Virus record (IMG/VR): IMGVR_UViG_3300025073_000048
Location: 5,403 to 69,402 of that record
Source of the DNA: a virus
Length of the DNA: 64,000 nucleotides
Direction: 5' to 3' (one strand)
In this document: positions 4,753 to 53,909 of the stretch, one piece after another
Numbering within the stretch: position 1 is the stretch's first letter
Layout: each line of letters opens with the position of its first letter
The notes under the pieces: generated by a model
What the model was told of the DNA's origin: nothing
Database searches by the model: none
The model's input: the letters and a program-made list of their open reading frames with translations, nothing else
Program-made: the position numbers and the translations under genes

Positions 4753-5931
4753 TCAATCCCCCATCACATTCACATCGCCGATACGGTCTCTGCATTCGTA
4801 GTATGGTGAAACCTGATCGATTCTGCGATCTGAGTCCTTCGCCTCCAGTACGGCACGCTCAGCCAACTGGAGCCGCTCGATGCGATCCTTCGAGTCACGC
4901 TTGGTTAGGATGGCAAACGCCGACTCGCAGAGACGCTGGTAAGCGGTCAGCATCGCGCCTGTCTCCACGTCGATCGGATCGCTCACAGTGAACTTGACAG
5001 ACGAGATTGCCGCAGACGGCGCGGCGTCAAGGACACACGTTGCGCCATTCGACGCCACGGACACAATCGTCCTTTCGTCCGTGTACGTGTTCGTGGTATC
5101 ACCAAGACCACCGAATAGGTTGTCTGGCTCATTCGCGGACGAGCCGAATCGAATGATGCACCCAACGTGCGACTGCGTGAACGAACCCGTCGCAATCGTG
5201 CACGTGGTCGATCCAGCAGTGACAGACACGGTCCCAGTCGAATACTTCTCCGTCACGAGTTGCCTTGGAGATTTTTGGAAGTCGTACCGGAACGTCAATA
5301 CTGAGTCCGGTGGAGGCAGGAACACCAGCGACATGTTGTTGATGTAGTCACTGTCGCCCGTGACGTAGGCGTACTCGGGATCGCCCGGTTCAGCCGGATC
5401 GGACACGGCATCGCGTGACGCCTGATCTGGGAACACAACATCAAGTTCCTCATCCTCGGTGACGTTCCAAAGCTGCCCCATCGTCTTGAATCCGACAGGC
5501 AAAGGATATTCGTCGCGGTACAGCGAGTACACAGTCAATGCGGCTACGTCAGCACCAGGATTCACATTCGCGTCCAGAACAACATGTGTTGAATCGACGT
5601 AGCTTTCAACCGGATAGGCGGCTCCCGCGATCAGGAGCTTTCCGTACGCTGCCCATGACGGAAACGTACCGCCCGACAGCGTGACTAATCGTTCCGACGC
5701 GCCGCCCGTGTGATCATAGGCAATTGTTCCTGTCGCGTACGGCGCAACCGTGGCGAGGTAGCGTGTTCCGTTATACATCACCCACGCATGCGCCGTCTGA
5801 AGTGAACGCAACGCCTCCTTTGCGGCGCGCTTAGCCATCCTCAAAGGGCGACCCGCGCGCTCGTCATTGTAAACGTCGAGAATGTGCTCAACGATGTCTT
5901 GGTATGTCCAGATTTCGGTTGTTGCCATCAC
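4753..5931 (-). CDS. Putative head-tail adaptor with beta-domain insertions
   Basis: N-terminal helices ending AHAW, then YPLPxGF motif typical of adaptor proteins. Confidence 0.55.
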   Translation of the reverse strand: MMATTEIWTYQDIVEHILDVYNDERAGRPLRMAKRAAKEALRSLQTAHAWVMYNGTRYLATVAPYATGTIAYDHTGGASERLVTLSGGTFPSWAAYGKLLIAGAAYPVESYVDSTHVVLDANVNPGADVAALTVYSLYRDEYPLPVGFKTMGQLWNVTEDEELDVVFPDQASRDAVSDPAEPGDPEYAYVTGDSDYINNMSLVFLPPPDSVLTFRYDFQKSPRQLVTEKYSTGTVSVTAGSTTCTIATGSFTQSHVGCIIRFGSSANEPDNLFGGLGDTTNTYTDERTIVSVASNGATCVLDAAPSAAISSVKFTVSDPIDVETGAMLTAYQRLCESAFAILTKRDSKDRIERLQLAERAVLEAKDSDRRIDQVSPYYECRDRIGDVNVMGD

Positions 5932-47296: not shown

Positions 47297-48100
47297 CTAT
47301 GAGAGCTTCGGGACTTGCTTCATCAAGTCATCGAAGTTGGGGATTTCGTTTTTGAGAGTCTTCACGAAGTAAGCCAGCGGGCGCTGCGGCCTGGGGGAAA
47401 CCATCCTGGTTCCATTCGCCGCGCCCATCACGGTCGCCAACGAGAGTTTTCCGGTCGTCACGCACCAACCGAGTTTTCGCAGGATCGGGTCCTGAGAACG
47501 AACCCGGAGGATTTGCTGGAGCGCTGCAGCGGTGCTGTGGATTTCTGCTTCCGCCTTTTCCGGCTCCCTGATCTGATCAGATAAATCCTGTTCCTGTTCC
47601 TGATCCTGATCCTGATCCTGGCTTCGAAGGGGCTTCGAAGGGGCTTCATAGCCCCTTCCTGTTTTTGACGGGTCGGACAATGAAAATGACGTGGCATACC
47701 GTTGATAGAAGTCCATAAAGAATGGGGACTTACGCATTGAAAGCCATTCTTTTTCGATGCCCTTGATGCGGTTGTCACGAGGCGATAGAGGCTCCCCAAT
47801 CTGGTGGGAAGCCATCTCACGCACAAAAACATGCTCTGCAGCCCTGTTGTAGGACGCAAAAAGGGCCTCTGATACCCTTCGAAGCCCCTTCGAAGCCCCT
47901 TCATCAGACATCCCTGTTTCATGAAGGAGCAGTGGCCACGGAAGGTAGTACAGACCAATCATATTGGCACTTGGACATGTCATGAGGTACACCGCAATCA
48001 ACTGCGCTTCCATGCCTTTTTCCCTCAGTAATTTTCCCGTTTCACCAGTCCAAAACGCTGGTGAAACTTTGGCATAAGTGCGCATTGAAACATCCTTCAA
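47297..48100 (-). CDS. Phage replication initiator/replisome organiser
   Basis: YAKVSPAFW...LIAVYLMT...IGLYYLP N terminus; QDQDQDQEQE linker; internal 11-bp repeats; upstream of dnaB. Confidence 0.7.
   Translation of the reverse strand: MKDVSMRTYAKVSPAFWTGETGKLLREKGMEAQLIAVYLMTCPSANMIGLYYLPWPLLLHETGMSDEGASKGLRRVSEALFASYNRAAEHVFVREMASHQIGEPLSPRDNRIKGIEKEWLSMRKSPFFMDFYQRYATSFSLSDPSKTGRGYEAPSKPLRSQDQDQDQEQEQDLSDQIREPEKAEAEIHSTAAALQQILRVRSQDPILRKLGWCVTTGKLSLATVMGAANGTRMVSPRPQRPLAYFVKTLKNEIPNFDDLMKQVPKLS
47620..47902. repeat. Two oppositely oriented clusters of 11-bp repeats (GGGGCTTCGAA); candidate ori iterons
   Basis: 47620-47657 GGCTTCGAAGGGGCTTCGAAGGGGCTTC...; 47875-47902 CCCTTCGAAGCCCCTTCGAAGCCCCTTC. 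Confidence 0.6.
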
Positions 48101-49635
48101 GACGCGAACGTGTGCGCCTGCAGTTCCTTACCAAGCGTTTCGTCGCGTGTTGCTTCGGCGGTCAGGATATATACACCGCGTGCCTTCGCGTGATCGTCAA
48201 TGAACTTCCTGTTCCACACGTCCACGCCCTCCCACGCTTCCTGCGGGATGAACAACAGACCGCCATCCCCGACACGCTCCACACCGATCTCAATCGCGAT
48301 GTGCCACTTCTCTGTAGCACTCAGCTCGTGATACGGCGCCCACATGTCCTTCGCTTCCACGTAGCCGTACACACGCTTGTGCACACCCTCGGACACGATC
48401 TTGACCCACTTCGATTCAATCGCGTCAGACAGCACCGAATCCGTAATTCCAGCGGCTTTTCGGTACCTTTCCGCTTTCTCGCGCCGCGACTTCGCCGACT
48501 CCGCAAACGCGGTGACGGAGGCTTGCTTCATGCGCGCATCACGCACACGCACGCCATCCTCCATCGCCAGTTTCGCCGCGTCATACGCTGTCTTGTACTC
48601 AGCGACCTGCTCATCGGTCGGGCGCACGTAGTTGTCCGAGTCAGCGATGACCTTGAGGCACGCCGCACGTCGTTCCGCGTGCGTGCTGATCAGCTCCGCA
48701 CTCTCACGTGCCAGCTTGACGCCCGAGTTAGCCGTATCAATCTCACGATCGCACAATTCGATCGAATGCTGAATCTCGTCCATTTGCTTCAGCAAATCCT
48801 GCTTGTGCTGCACGAGGCCATCGACCTTTCCCTGAGCCTCCGTGACTGCTTTCTTCGCTTCCTCCACGCTGGTAGGGATGTTGCGGGCATCCCAGCGAAT
48901 CAGCTCCTCGCGGGCCTTCTGGGCCTTCTCAACTCGCTCGGCTGCCACCTGCTGGTGCTGGACGGAGTGGGAATACTTGTCCTGGGCTTCAAAGAACGCC
49001 GCCTGCAGCTTCTCGGGGTCGTGCTCCTTGGTCATATCCACCGCGTCGATCTGCTCCTTAATCGACTGCGCCTGCTGCTCATCCTTCTCAGCGGTCTTTT
49101 CCCACGTGCGAGCCTCGGCCTGATAGTCCCGTGCGATCTTCGCCGCCATGTCGATCAGGTCCCCCGACTTGAGGGCCTCGGAAGTCACGATCGTCTCGAA
49201 CTCTTCCGGGTCGAACTCGGGCCGCGTGTCGAACAGGTGCCGATCGGCCTCCACCCCGGTCAGGGCGATCAACGCCTTGATCCGGCGCTTGTCCGCCGCC
49301 ACCTCATCCTTGACGCCAGGGTCCACCAGCGAGGCGAGGTTCAGCTTCCCTTCAAGGTGTTCCACGGCGAACTCACCAGCACAGCGCGTCTGCTTGGGGT
49401 TAATCGCCACGTGTACTCCGAGCCCGTCGATCCGACCTTTCTCCGACCCATGACGCAGCGGCAAACCTCCCTCACCCGCCGCCACGTCCGCCAATGACCC
49501 CACCAGGATCGACTTACCGACTCCATTCGGACCCACAATCGTCGTCACTCCAGGCGACTCCAGCGTGAACTTGAACTTCGGGATCGGGCCCAGGTTTTCG
49601 ACTTCCACAGTTTTCTGATTTTCCTTCACGGTCAC
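48097..49635 (-). CDS. SMC/Rad50-like coiled-coil P-loop ATPase
   Basis: VENLGPI, Walker A GPNGVGKS, long coiled coil, degenerate signature LSATEK; GTG start after GGAG. Confidence 0.7.
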   Translation of the reverse strand: MTVKENQKTVEVENLGPIPKFKFTLESPGVTTIVGPNGVGKSILVGSLADVAAGEGGLPLRHGSEKGRIDGLGVHVAINPKQTRCAGEFAVEHLEGKLNLASLVDPGVKDEVAADKRRIKALIALTGVEADRHLFDTRPEFDPEEFETIVTSEALKSGDLIDMAAKIARDYQAEARTWEKTAEKDEQQAQSIKEQIDAVDMTKEHDPEKLQAAFFEAQDKYSHSVQHQQVAAERVEKAQKAREELIRWDARNIPTSVEEAKKAVTEAQGKVDGLVQHKQDLLKQMDEIQHSIELCDREIDTANSGVKLARESAELISTHAERRAACLKVIADSDNYVRPTDEQVAEYKTAYDAAKLAMEDGVRVRDARMKQASVTAFAESAKSRREKAERYRKAAGITDSVLSDAIESKWVKIVSEGVHKRVYGYVEAKDMWAPYHELSATEKWHIAIEIGVERVGDGGLLFIPQEAWEGVDVWNRKFIDDHAKARGVYILTAEATRDETLGKELQAHTFAS

Positions 49636-49661
49636 TACTCCTAAAACTTCACATGTGTTGA

Positions 49662-50655
49662 AAAACACACTCACAGCGGATGATTCGATCCGCGATTATG
49701 GTTGCTCTCTACCAAGATGGTTCAATCTCCTTGTTTGAATGCGTTCCGAGCACTTGTTTCAGTCGGGTGGCATGACTACGCTCATACTGTTTGGTTCACT
49801 CATCTTTCGAGGCTGCGCTCACGGGAGGTGATTCAATCTGCCGTTCGAAGAACATGTTTCAATCAGCTTGCATGCCTACGTTCACTACATTTGGTTCAAT
49901 CACGAGTCCTGACTACGTTCAAGATCGCTGATTCAATCGGCACGCATGACTGCTCTCGTGATATCTGTTGCAATCTTCAGGTTTGGATGCGCTCAACACT
50001 GCTGGGTATCTGCGGGCTTGACTTCACTCCGCCTTGATGATTCTGTCGCCGGACTTGATTGCGTTCACGACCAATGATTCTCTCCGAACGTGTGACTACG
50101 CTCCTCCCACCTGGTTCAATCTGGGCAGATGGCTGCGCTCACGCCCATTGGTTCTATCCATCGAAATGGCTTCGCTCACGTGGTTTGGTTCGTTCGACTT
50201 CTTAGGCTGCGATCACCTGACGTGTTTCATTCACAGCCCTCTGTCTGCGATCCAGCAACTTGTTTCAGTTCGAGAACTTGGCTGCGATCTCCAAAAATGA
50301 TTCTGTCCGGCGCCATGTCTGCGATCGGCGGTGTTGATTCAGTCACACATTTTGTCTGCGATCGGGCGTTTTGGTTCAGTCTTGCCAGATGGCTACGCTA
50401 CTTCGATCGGATTCAATCCCAAGCTTTGGCTACGTTCCTTGCATATGCTTCAATCAAGTCAACTGGCTGCGATCACACATCCTGTTTCTATCTCAAGGAC
50501 TGTCTTCTCTCAGCGAAATTGTTTCAATCTATCCTTTTGGATACGATCAACCCAATTGCTTCTTTCAGGAATGCTGGCTGCGCTTATACACTGTGGTTCA
50601 CTCACACTACATTTGCTGCGCTCTCACACTCCGATTCAATCGCGTGTGATGGCTA
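49662..50655 (-). repeat. TIGR-like dual-repeat array 1 (~27 units, 37-nt period)
   Basis: + strand alternation TG(G/A/T)TTCAATC-N8-TG(G/A/T)CT(G/A)CG(C/A/T)TC-N8; 10-mer starts at 49681, 49718, 49755, 49792, 49829 ... 50557, 50594, 50632; spacers vary. Confidence 0.9.
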
Positions 50656-52851
50656 ACCCGCGTCCTCATCCGACGCATCTTCCTCGACCTCTTCACGAGT
50701 CTTGCGTGTAATACGCTCTCCCTCGCGCAGATCCTTCAGAGACTTGCCTGTCATCGCAAACGGCCAGTTTGGAATCTCAATAAAGTGCCGGTGATCGCCC
50801 TCGCAGTGCTCGAACACGTAAGGCACGGGCGGCTCCGTCCCGAAGTAATCCACGTGCATGACGTGATGCAAGTGCGACAGGAAGATCTTCACCGCGAACC
50901 GGCGCGCTCGTGCATGCAGGTGCCCTGGAGGCAGCGTACCGTCCTTGTAGTGCTTGTACGCCTCCGTTGTCTTGCCGACCTCGTGCATACGCACTGCCGC
51001 CAACTCAGCGAACTTCTTCTCACCGTTCGCCGCGACCTCCGCGTCCTTCCGTTGACGATAGAGCTGGCCGTAAATAGCTCCCTCTTTGTTCTGCGTCTTC
51101 ACGAAGCACTCCCCAATCTTGAATGCGCAGTTATGGACTGCGATACCATCGGCGACATAGCTTTCGTCCTCTTCTACCTCCAGGTTGTAAACAGGACCAG
51201 TGTATGGAACTGATTCGGGTGGGTTCAACTGAAGCCATACACCGTCTGGTTGCCACTTAGAAACATTCGATGATTTCCATTCAACTGATTCATCACACAG
51301 AATTTGTTTCCCGAATAAATCTCGGTCGTGTACTTCAATGTGATATGCAGTGTTCCCAGCGGGTAGAATCCGCGAGCTAAGACCACTGACGATTCCGCAC
51401 CGCAAAAGCAATTCCTGAATCTGAATAGCAAGAGTCAGGGAAATGGTTCCATAAGAAACTGTCTCTGATGTGTAGTGCCCATTTCCTTCAAATAACCCTC
51501 GCAGCAATGAACGGCACAGAGAAATGTCCATCGACATCCAGTTATTAGGAATATGTTTGTTTGCTGAATAGACACCAAATAGCTTATTGAACGACTCGGA
51601 CAGAAGTGATGAACATGCTTTGACACAGCACCCATCATCACACTTGCTCATAGAAAGGCTGCTATCAAGGCCAAACACATACTTAAACACAGCCCTTACG
51701 TGGTCATGCAAAACAGTTTCTTTTTTGTGAAACGCGAACTGCACAACCCCGTCGCTGCCAGCACACCCCTCTGCGATAAACAATCCGACAAAGCGAGCTA
51801 TTTCTCCGTTAAGCTCTACACGTGTCGGCACACGAGAAGCGACCGGAGATCTATCAAGATAAGATTCACACTCGATCGCCGGGATAAATCCTTCACTTGG
51901 AATAACGGGGACCTTTACCATCCACCCAGGCTGCAATTCAGACGCGTTAATCCAATCCTGTCCGTAATTGAAGTTTTCCTTGGATCTATTCTTCCCTCGC
52001 ACTATCATGCTTACGCCTCCCTGTGAGTAACCAGTTGATTCACCAATTTCACGCAATGTCTTACCCTCTTGGCGCATGCGAATCATCTGCGAAGCGACCT
52101 CATTTCTACCGTTTGGAGTAGAAGCTCGCGTCACCTTAAATCGTTTCCGCCCTTCTCCTTCGTAAAAACACACTGGGACTTTGTCGGCGAGAACAGGGTG
52201 GTTGGGAGTAAGAAGTGGTCCGCGCGCGGCTAGTCCGCGACATGTCAGATGCACCAGCGATCCCGTGAAGTCATTCTCAATGACGTGCGTAACCTTTCTC
52301 CACCGTCCGAGATGAGTCAACACGAGATCACCAATACGCACAGAGTCAATTGGAATAGTCCCTCGCTTTGTGATTACGAGAGTTGTTGGATGACAGCACA
52401 GAATCTTCAGGCGCGCATTCCAGGGACGGCGTGTCTTCGGCTCCCACTTCATCGTTGGGTCGAGTCCAGCAAATCGCCAGAAATGCCCTGCCGTCTTGCA
52501 GCGGGACACGTCCAAGTGAGACAGCAGACCAGCCGAAATGACCGGCCCAATACCGACCTGACTCATCATCCACTGACCCACCGAGTACGTCTCCGAGAAC
52601 GCCTTGAGCGATCGCTTAATCGCGTTCTCCACACGTGTCATTTCATCATTCACCCATTGCAACACTCGCCCCGGTTCCTTCGTCCCAAGCGACCGCAGTT
52701 GACCAGCAGTCGCAATCCGGTACTTCTGCATCGTGTAGTAGTTATCCACCAGAAATCGCACCTGCGCGCGATCCATCAGACCTGCCGCTGTGACTAAGTC
52801 TTTGGTGAGCTTGCGTGCAATTTCGATCGGTTCGTCAAAGGTCTTGTCCAT
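50653..52851 (-). CDS. Tas (TasA-like) Nop-domain RNA-guided DNA-binding protein precursor containing an intein (732 aa; spliced 309 aa)
   Basis: Coiled coil (YYTMQKYRIA), GIGPVISAGLL, FWRFAGLDP, WNARLKIL/CAFKIGECFVK, YGQLYRQRK, HARARRFAVKIFLSHL resemble Nop/IS110-Tnp fold; no RuvC or HNH; flanked by arrays. Confidence 0.8.
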   Translation of the reverse strand: MDKTFDEPIEIARKLTKDLVTAAGLMDRAQVRFLVDNYYTMQKYRIATAGQLRSLGTKEPGRVLQWVNDEMTRVENAIKRSLKAFSETYSVGQWMMSQVGIGPVISAGLLSHLDVSRCKTAGHFWRFAGLDPTMKWEPKTRRPWNARLKILCCHPTTLVITKRGTIPIDSVRIGDLVLTHLGRWRKVTHVIENDFTGSLVHLTCRGLAARGPLLTPNHPVLADKVPVCFYEGEGRKRFKVTRASTPNGRNEVASQMIRMRQEGKTLREIGESTGYSQGGVSMIVRGKNRSKENFNYGQDWINASELQPGWMVKVPVIPSEGFIPAIECESYLDRSPVASRVPTRVELNGEIARFVGLFIAEGCAGSDGVVQFAFHKKETVLHDHVRAVFKYVFGLDSSLSMSKCDDGCCVKACSSLLSESFNKLFGVYSANKHIPNNWMSMDISLCRSLLRGLFEGNGHYTSETVSYGTISLTLAIQIQELLLRCGIVSGLSSRILPAGNTAYHIEVHDRDLFGKQILCDESVEWKSSNVSKWQPDGVWLQLNPPESVPYTGPVYNLEVEEDESYVADGIAVHNCAFKIGECFVKTQNKEGAIYGQLYRQRKDAEVAANGEKKFAELAAVRMHEVGKTTEAYKHYKDGTLPPGHLHARARRFAVKIFLSHLHHVMHVDYFGTEPPVPYVFEHCEGDHRHFIEIPNWPFAMTGKSLKDLREGERITRKTREEVEEDASDEDAG
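51130..52398 (-). mobile_element. Intein (423 aa) with HTH and LAGLIDADG homing endonuclease
   Basis: Block A CCHPTTLVIT, block B LTPNHPV, LAGLIDADG motifs GLFIAEG and GLFEGNG, block F/G VYNLEVEEDESYVADGIAVHN followed by Cys; visibly lower GC. Confidence 0.92.
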
Positions 52852-52885
52852 GTTATGTTTCCAATTCGTGATGACGAAATGCGGT

Positions 52886-53440
<555 letters not shown>

Positions 53441-53460
53441 CTTTGGTCTCCTAAGTAAAA

Positions 53461-53909
53461 GTAAAACGCTCTGGAAGGTTGTTAATTCCGAATACTTGGC
53501 TGCATTCCTTGCCATTGGTTCAATCTCAAATATTGATTGCGATCTGGTTCACTGGTTCACTCACCTTCCATGTCTGCGTTCCGAAACTTTGGTTCAGTCG
53601 CCGAAGGTGGCTACACTCGACCCATTTGATTCAATCAACGGTGGTGAGTTCGTTCGGGGGTTTGTGTCATTCATATCTACGACTTCGATCCAGGGATCTG
53701 TTTCAATCTGACTGATAGTCTGCGATCTTCAGATATGGTTCTGTCTGGTCTTCTGTCTCGTTCGAGCTGAATGATCATCTGGCGATGTGACTACGATCAA
53801 GCGGTTTGATTCATTCCTGCTTGATGCCTGCGATCGGCTGCATTGGTTCATTCAAACGATCTGTCTGCGATCTGGATATTTGGTTCCATCACTAACAATG
53901 GCTACGCTC
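53461..53909 (-). repeat. TIGR-like dual-repeat array 2 (~12 units)
   Basis: Same repeats: 10-mer at 53516, 53553, 53590, 53627 ... 53807, 53844, 53881; last 11-mer TGGCTACGCTC at 53899-53909. Confidence 0.88.

Follow-up and report, generated by a model that had tools for sequence, protein, structure and literature searches.

The locus considered here raises a simple question: what is a 423-residue insert doing in the middle of a phage Tas gene, and can the gene still make its protein? The stretch analyzed, hereafter the window, is 64,000 nucleotides long (positions 5,403 to 69,402 of IMG/VR virus record IMGVR_UViG_3300025073_000048). The full record, an environmental phage, has 69,402 bases, is rated 100% complete, and carries one Tas and one copy of the insert. 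A first-pass annotation, made from sequence alone, had called the insert a LAGLIDADG intein with an extra helix-turn-helix (HTH), lodged in the core of the Nop-like domain of Tas, and had suggested that its endonuclease may be a nickase or decaying. Our analysis indicates that the insert is very likely a mobile class-1 intein in a phage tasA gene, which would be spliced out to leave active TasA, which belongs to a family spread by homing, and whose endonuclease is probably impaired in this copy.

We determined the extent of the gene and its parts as follows.

50653..52851, minus strand: tasA precursor gene, 732 codons plus stop; the likely start is the ATG at 52851 (basis: open reading frame list, Met positions, homologue starts).
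52399..52851, minus strand: N-extein, 151 aa, a coiled-coil region and the first half of the Nop/IS110-like domain, ending ...RPWNARLKIL (basis: Pfam, phrog_4285, profile A2).
51130..52398, minus strand: intein, 423 aa, from Cys1 to His422-Asn423 (basis: motifs, homologue alignment, fold).
50653..51129, minus strand: C-extein, 158 aa plus stop, starting with Cys+1 and then the helix CAFKIGECFVK (basis: phrog_4285, A2, hidden Markov model alignment to TasH).

The minus-strand open reading frame (ORF) spans 50653-52953 and has 766 open codons, with CCHPTT at residue 186 and VHN|CAF at residues 606-608. The start was assigned to the ATG at 52851 because homologues begin (MD..) at that Met, and in this numbering the intein comprises residues 152-574 of a 732-aa precursor. 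The intein boundaries first given (51130-52398) are exact, with a Cys at the start, His-Asn at the end, and a Cys directly after. The products then expected, of ~35 and ~47 kDa, correspond to computed masses of 35.4 kDa for the ligated exteins (309 aa) and 46.8 kDa for the intein. An intein start at the second Cys was also considered and rejected, as the C-x4-T-L-V spacing, the homologue alignment, and the ...L|C sequence in uninterrupted homologues favor the first Cys.

The insert sits precisely in frame. When the N-extein (151 aa) was used by itself to search longer proteins, 883 matched at E <= 0.001 among 1452 candidates. Among the 120 matches listed, 118 measure 266-362 aa and the long ones are P0002 (733 aa) and P0081 (609 aa). 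When 13 sequences were aligned, the intein-less proteins passed from ...RPWNA.LK.L directly into C(AF/W)K.GE.FVK at the site, and at the same point the window protein and P0002 contain 423 extra residues. The junction ...WNARLKIL|CAFKIGECFVK agrees column for column with the intein-less P0001, P0003, P0004, and others. RPWNA, L148, and L151 are invariant in 13/13 aligned sequences, and the window exteins retain every residue that is invariant in the family. Two independent profiles built without inteins divide at the same place. Profile A2, made from 27 intein-less Tas relatives, matches the window record at model positions 8-160 in the N-extein and 159-300 in the C-extein (E 3.6e-77 and 7.7e-63), and in phrog_4285 model positions 11-168 correspond to the N-extein and 170-275 to the C-extein. 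At the sequence level, so clean a split of two intein-less profiles at the site is far beyond chance.

An empty site is found on L004, a 71.6-kb IMG/VR contig that shares synteny with the window along ~9 kb (nucleotide identity 66-78%). It has 47 nt between the flanking blocks, compared with 1316 in the window, and the difference of 1269 nt equals 423 codons. The alignment, both profiles, and this contig all agree that the exteins rejoin into one domain at the site, as the first-pass annotation had held. The intein-less alleles that it proposed to look for are represented by P0001 and by L004, the latter shorter by exactly 1269 nt.

Within the insert, we could place the following features.

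52198..52209, minus strand: splicing block B, T64-P-N-H67, invariant in the 7 Tas inteins of alignment A4 (T215/H218 in precursor numbering).
51979..52113, minus strand: three-helix HTH-like module in the Hint domain, intein aa ~96-140, with low-confidence linkers around it (basis: weak Pfam matches, model).
51289..51813, minus strand: LAGLIDADG homing-endonuclease domain, intein aa ~196-370 (PF14528, E 1.4e-09; fold matches to PI-SceI, TliVMA, and I-DmoI).
51766..51786, minus strand: LAGLIDADG motif 1, GLFIAEG, intein residues 205-211, with Glu210 present (basis: sequence, intein alignment).
51478..51498, minus strand: LAGLIDADG motif 2, GLFEGNG, intein residues 301-307, with Asn306 (codon AAT at 51481-51483).
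51130..51288, minus strand: C-terminal Hint part with blocks F/G (VYNLEVEEDESYVADGIAVHN) (basis: alignments, model).

The splicing residues C1, T64-P-N-H67, H422, N423, and C+1 are all present. C1, T64xxH67, H422, N423, and C+1 are conserved in the seven Tas inteins of A4, and T64 and H67 are nearly invariant in 21 intein relatives. We read the insert as a splicing class-1 intein because all of these residues are present and conserved in its relatives, and it very probably splices. A non-splicing Hint domain of the bacterial intein-like (BIL) type was rejected in view of the canonical termini and the LAGLIDADG domain. Pfam detects LAGLIDADG_3 (PF14528) above its cut-off, and matches to Hint_2 and Intein_splicing fall below the curated cut-offs (24.2 bits vs 28.4, and 22.2 vs 35.8). 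The HTH stretch, at intein residues ~96-137, has weak Pfam matches to Sigma70_r4 (E 0.016), HTH_58 (0.076), and HTH_3 (0.14).

An AlphaFold2 model of the intein, made from a 21-row alignment, has a mean predicted local distance difference test (pLDDT) score of 87.4 and a predicted template modeling (pTM) score of 0.81. Its N- and C-terminal parts are rich in beta structure, its central domain is alpha/beta, and three short helices occur at residues 99-110, 115-122, and 126-133; these HTH-like helices have block pLDDT values of 80-92. In a Foldseek search of the PDB the model matched the TliVMA intein (1.8e-20), PI-SceI (2.4e-20), the PhoVMA intein, PI-TkoII, and PI-PfuI (3e-14), with I-DmoI (8e-09) matching on the central domain. 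A phmmer search of the intein against PDB sequences gave no match at E <= 0.1, and the kinship is visible by fold search alone. As modeled, the insert is a class-1 bifunctional intein made of a Hint domain, a monomeric two-motif LAGLIDADG endonuclease, and a three-helix module of DNA-binding type. Both the LAGLIDADG identity and the extra HTH of the first-pass annotation are thus borne out, the former by PF14528, the model, and the matches to solved inteins, and the latter by the weak Pfam matches together with the three modeled helices. P0126, P0127, and the intein of L151 (326 aa) lack the HTH-like module, which is therefore an add-on in part of the clade. In PI-SceI, a beta-rich DNA-recognition region lies near the corresponding place.

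Where the intein sits bears directly on what it would do to the host protein. In a hidden Markov model (HMM) alignment to SpTasH, the last N-extein residue corresponds to M201 and Cys+1 to V202, and the C-extein helix CAFKIGECFVK aligns with SpTasH V202-K211. In the model of intein-less P0001, the site falls inside the helix formed by residues 147-163. Both place the insertion in the core of the Nop domain, where it had been put at first. According to the available part of the SpTasH study (PMC13421893), this is the Nop alpha4 helix, in which W203 stabilizes the spacer-target heteroduplex and K211 inserts into double-stranded DNA and unwinds it locally. By the alignment, the intein enters at the start of this helix. 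Most TasA relatives continue after the site with C-W-K-x-G-E-S-F-V-K, with the same eight-residue Trp-to-Lys spacing as SpTasH; the window has C-A-F-K-I-G-E-C-F-V-K. A 47-kDa insert in a helix that bears both the heteroduplex-contacting aromatic residue and the unwinding Lys would keep target engagement off until it is removed. By analogy with SpTasH, unspliced TasA is probably inactive and the phage probably dependent on splicing.

The same position invites another explanation, that the intein is a post-translational switch benefiting the phage, with splicing held by a disulfide among Cys1, Cys2, and Cys+1 or by DNA binding of the HTH, then released by a host or infection cue that times TasA. 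Splicing would gate function, because target engagement needs the helix in which the site lies. Three cysteines do meet at the junction (C1, C2, and C+1), 6/9 Tas inteins start with CC, and regulatory splicing is argued for other inteins in the available part of PMC11409957. However, no result here bears on conditionality, and the conditional switch suggested in the first-pass annotation goes beyond the evidence. The distribution of the intein, described below, leads us to consider such a switch highly improbable.

We also asked what kind of protein the exteins would form. Profile A2 searched against PDB sequences matched TasR 9MTY (8e-20), TasH (1e-10), and IS621 (9e-06); by the available part of Faure et al. 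2025 (PMC12045711), 9MTY is their TasR ribonucleoprotein. Pfam on the N-extein gives Transposase_20 (E 6.3e-05). The AlphaFold2 model of intein-less P0001 (pLDDT 85.8) is all-helical except for two single-residue strand marks by DSSP. In a fold search its best matches were TasH (4.4e-07) and TasR, with template modeling (TM) scores normalized to the target of up to 0.68, and the IS621 and ISCro4 recombinases were far behind. Neither the exteins nor P0001 gave a Pfam match to an HNH or RuvC nuclease domain. Two arrays flank the gene.

49662..50655, minus strand: TIGR array 1, downstream of tasA, ~26 units, mostly with a 37-nt period (basis: repeat families, units in register).
53461..53909, minus strand: TIGR array 2, upstream of tasA, ~12 units, with repeats as in array 1 (basis: repeat families, units in register).

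Each array unit has two alternating ~10-nt repeats with ~8-nt spacers between them. The 37-nt spacing is found in a 16-copy and a 12-copy repeat family, and the minus-strand register has 28 and 12 anchors. Some units are irregular, with spacings of 26, 75, and 91 nt, and array 1 opens with a repeat that overlaps the stop codon of tasA. Judged by sequence and model, the locus is a dual-repeat TIGR-TasA system whose tasA product is a nuclease-less Tas of the TasA type, and TasA is predicted to be a tigRNA-guided DNA binder served by the two flanking arrays.

Taken as a mechanism, the gene would be translated as an 82-kDa precursor. Cys1 would attack the preceding peptide bond, Cys+1 would take over the N-extein, and Asn423 would cyclize, releasing the 46.8-kDa intein and the 35.4-kDa, 309-aa TasA. 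TasA would then bind DNA, guided by tigRNA from the two arrays. The intein itself would have spread among Tas genes by endonuclease-driven homing.

This last step finds its evidence in an allelic family of at least nine members that was absent from the first-pass account. A search with the intein returned 31 proteins at E <= 0.001 among 5603 candidates, six of them Tas proteins in which a related intein occupies this site (P0002, P0122-P0125, and P0127). Another match, P0121 (422 aa, no source or name), is 100% identical to the window intein over 62% of the query, and the other hosts of related inteins include deaminase, methylase, glycosyltransferase, and reductase genes. Scans of IMG/VR and metagenomes added L084, L085 (identical to L150 and P0124), and L151. 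With the window included, nine distinct Tas genes bear an intein at this site, 326-441 aa long. In a carefully built tree of 23 intein sequences, the nine Tas inteins fall in one group (support 100/97).

In the fetched loci, a sample made of best matches to the queries and no census, we counted 147 distinct Tas ORFs: 3 with the intein, 132 uninterrupted at a recognizable site, and 12 without the site pattern. The +1 residue is Cys in 120 of the 132. The first-pass inference that Tas is widespread and its insertion site conserved agrees with these counts, with the 883 N-extein matches, and with the invariance of RPWNA, L148, and L151. We then compared the distribution with a quick extein tree of 89 Tas rows, nine with the intein removed and 80 intein-less. 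Intein presence needs 8 changes on this tree, at least 5 of them forced by starred branches, and the intein label is no more clustered than in shuffles (130/500 were as low). P0123 and L084, which belong to separate starred or near-starred parts of the Tas tree, share 65% identity in their inteins and 50% in their exteins. Conversely, the exteins of P0001 (empty) and P0002 (occupied) are 98.1% identical. The scatter of a single intein clade over the host tree, with a near-identical occupied/empty pair, argues for homing and loss, and this is the pattern expected of a selfish element moved among Tas genes by its endonuclease. It also speaks against the switch: with the intein in so few of the fetched ORFs and missing from P0001, the nearly identical counterpart of P0002, the host has no need of it, and the prevalence of the +1 Cys in uninterrupted ORFs makes this a host residue rather than an adaptation to the intein.

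The pair P0001/P0002 differs right at the site (...ALRCL|C vs ...ALKTL|C) and at a few other residues, which may be a co-conversion tract. Elsewhere in the family, the 609-aa Tas relative P0081 is interrupted at a second site by another kind of insert, ~300 aa long, which separates ...GQWLQ from SICGIGPV and lies upstream of GIGPVISAGL, a motif resembling a helix-hairpin-helix. This insert starts with Cys, ends with Cys-Asn followed by Ser, and matches Pfam Intein_splicing (E 6.9e-06) with no LAGLIDADG match. Because of this second site, Tas genes may have at least two independent intein sites. A weaker form of the idea, taken up below, that the intein is more than a passenger would hold that homing elements regularly settle in Tas genes, and that their two or more independent sites mark natural split points of the Nop domain. 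A 508-aa Tas ORF on the metagenome contig L163 is uninterrupted at the intein site, and its extra length must lie elsewhere, as an extension or another insertion.

A tblastn search of 50,697 GenBank phage records gave 7 records, none covering >= 80% of the query, and no close relative of this Tas. All of these matches lie wholly or mostly in the intein part, in other hosts (tRNA synthetase, methylase, ribonucleotide reductase), except H7, a Vibrio phage hint-domain gene. Genome contigs scanned with P0002 gave a single match, an unrelated 28%-identical intein piece in a Persephonella metagenome-assembled genome. A search of viral contigs with the single precursor protein gave no locus, and the relatives came from the alignment query.

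The state of this particular copy is best read from its second LAGLIDADG motif. Intein residue 306 is Asn, whereas the other 8 Tas inteins have Asp (seven) or Glu (one), so that D306N is unique among the nine; motif 1 retains Glu210. The codon was covered with 0 differences by contigs of runs X5 and X8, both from a study that possibly includes the source sample. In LAGLIDADG enzymes the terminal acid of each motif binds the catalytic metal of one active site. The two-motif alpha-beta-beta-alpha-beta-beta-alpha repeat fold is present here, with an acidic residue at the end of motif 1 and Asn306 at the end of motif 2. Because motif 2 has lost its metal-binding acid, double-strand cleavage is predicted to be lost. 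By fold the endonuclease belongs to the LAGLIDADG family, and by sequence it is probably not a full double-strand nuclease; this copy is likely a nickase or an inactive DNA binder. This loss (Asp to Asn) would mark a stage of the homing cycle after fixation, with the splicing residues intact.

It is less likely that the enzyme still makes double-strand breaks despite Asn306 and that the intein is now invading empty Tas alleles. The domain is modeled at high confidence, residues 196-370 are 78% identical to P0002, motif 1 is intact, and the sister lineage has the close occupied/empty pair P0002/P0001. The acid found at position 306 in all eight other Tas inteins and the metal-binding role of each motif's terminal acid stand against this, and we consider it unlikely. 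A further idea would turn the defect into a function: with one endonuclease site disabled and an HTH added, the intein may be more than a passenger and be kept as a DNA-binding or nicking module with conditional excision, releasing active TasA, acting as a guide-directed repressor, at a set stage of infection. We find this rather improbable. If true, it would be a natural post-translationally gated RNA-guided effector.

The loss of one acid could also be the first sign of a dead gene, with an intein that has stopped splicing, a TasA reduced to a pseudogene product, and arrays left over as relics. Some decay has begun in the endonuclease, with a catalytic residue lost, and block F has Asn in place of the commoner Asp. 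The rest of the locus makes this highly improbable. The 732 codons are open, no splicing nucleophile is lost, block B is intact, the residues invariant in the family all remain in the exteins, and the repeats are preserved in ~38 array units. The alignment of Tas inteins has 463 columns, 58 of them identical in at least 8/9. Where 7 or more of the other 8 share a residue, the window intein departs at three columns (H212C, S222A, and D306N), all in the endonuclease domain and none in Hint, and its branch on the intein tree is short (0.054, vs 0.16 for its sister P0002). There is thus no sign of general decay of this copy. The first-pass annotation was right that motif 2 has Asn at the acidic position; of its proposal that the enzyme is a nickase or decaying, the loss of one catalytic residue stands, and no other sign of decay accompanies it. 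Its remark on composition also holds, with GC of 0.476 in the intein and 0.558 and 0.581 in the exteins; at third codon positions (GC3) the values are 0.452, 0.675, and 0.730. The intein has the lowest GC of any 1269-nt stretch of the window, sampled every 50 nt, and its composition points to a foreign element.

Several points weigh against the interpretation of a mobile, splicing intein with an impaired endonuclease. Identity between the window and P0002 is equal for the intein (81%) and the exteins (80%), so that for this pair vertical co-descent is as good an account as recent homing. If the low GC3 is read as a sign of recent arrival, it fits poorly with this co-divergence. Branch support on the extein tree comes from the Shimodaira-Hasegawa-like approximate likelihood ratio test (SH-aLRT) only, and its intein-less rows are the 79 best N-extein protein matches and the L004 ORF rather than a random sample. 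No empty-site contig was seen in the contigs of four other runs from three studies (X3, X5, X7, and X8), although contigs cannot show the absence of a rare empty allele. These contigs have 0 differences to the window and bridge both junctions (the C-side in the contig records numbered 2, 6, 11, and 18; the N-side in those numbered 4, 9, and 13), with no joint skipping the intein. Block F has Asn (VYNLEV) where many inteins have Asp; we take it as a family trait because it is conserved across the clade, which is no proof of activity. Finally, splicing is deduced from sequence rather than seen as protein, and the proposal that Asn306 abolishes cleavage is carried over from knowledge of other enzymes.

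The architecture has clear counterparts among solved bifunctional inteins. PI-SceI (1VDE), TliVMA/PhoVMA (7QSU, 7QSS, 7QST), PI-PfuI (1DQ3), and PI-TkoII (2CW7) also combine Hint with an inserted two-motif monomeric LAGLIDADG domain, Cys1, and a His-Asn end. No other structures match the model better (E 1.8e-20 to 3e-14, TM 0.53-0.74), although sequence identities are only 10-15%. In these proteins the host is a V-ATPase, ribonucleotide reductase, or polymerase rather than a phage TasA, and the Tas intein differs in its three-helix HTH-like module after block B and in the Asn that replaces the catalytic acid of motif 2. The endonuclease domain superposes on I-DmoI (TM normalized to target 0.67-0.75). 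For I-DmoI, the entry titles of the single-site variants 5A0W (E117A) and 5AKF (Q42A/K120M, DNA nicked in one strand) show a strand-specific nick. Those variants are engineered and free-standing, whereas here the Asp/Glu to Asn change is natural and its effect predicted.

On the host side, the locus resembles described TIGR-TasA systems (FpTasA and others; PMC12045711; 10.64898/2026.09.09.750476) in having a phage-borne ~310-aa Nop protein without a nuclease and dual-repeat arrays with two short spacers per unit. It differs in that the gene is split by an intein, and its array unit is 37 nt with ~8-nt spacers, compared with the 36-nt tigRNAs/units described in the available part of PMC12045711. 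The word "intein" is absent from the main texts of PMC12045711, 10.64898/2026.09.09.750476, and 10.64898/2026.08.11.744272, although their supplementary locus tables may list such genes. Literature joining "intein" with "TIGR-Tas" or "tigRNA" consisted of gene-editing reviews alone, in one of which "intein" refers to split-intein delivery, and literature joining "intein" and "IS110" included nothing on an intein-split Tas among the titles listed. A survey of actinobacteriophage inteins, in the part available (10.1101/2025.01.02.630785), finds phage inteins in replication, repair, and packaging genes. The Tas intein resembles those in being mobile, in occupying a conserved site of a nucleic-acid enzyme, and in its local spread and patchy distribution. 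Its host class is an RNA-guided effector, and the survey may or may not include IS110-like/Tas hosts. The element is an ordinary intein and the locus an ordinary TIGR-TasA system; the combination is what is new. Natural inteins are not known from other RNA-guided effectors (Cas proteins), a point on which no search was made.

Around the system, the neighboring genes encode a RecE-like exonuclease, a likely annealing protein, a DnaD-like loader, and a large ATPase without a PHROG match. Between array 2 and tasA lies a 209-aa ORF (52886-53515, minus strand) with a long Ala/Tyr/Asp low-complexity stretch, encoded at 52977-53152 by a repeat with ~29 copies of GCAGCA, at which Logan contigs of other runs seemingly end. 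This ORF has a weak match to the unannotated phrog_21347 (E 4.8e-05). Directly downstream of array 1 is a 525-aa ORF (48097-49674, minus strand) with no PHROG match at E <= 0.001; the first-pass annotation called it SMC-like.

For Tas biology, these results indicate that selection on the conserved Nop helix is sufficiently strong to sustain a homing element, and that the Tas family would include an allele that must be spliced to work. They also point to a natural, tolerated break point directly before the heteroduplex-contacting aromatic residue, which would suit split-intein or conditionally active versions of very small DNA-targeting proteins. The source records label these genes as IS110 transposases or LAGLIDADG proteins, and such annotation hides both the Tas identity and the intein. 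For inteins, the locus adds a new class of host protein, a phage RNA-guided effector, and an allelic family of at least nine members that includes intein-plus/minus pairs with 98% identical exteins, a natural one-active-site variant, and an HTH add-on missing in some members.

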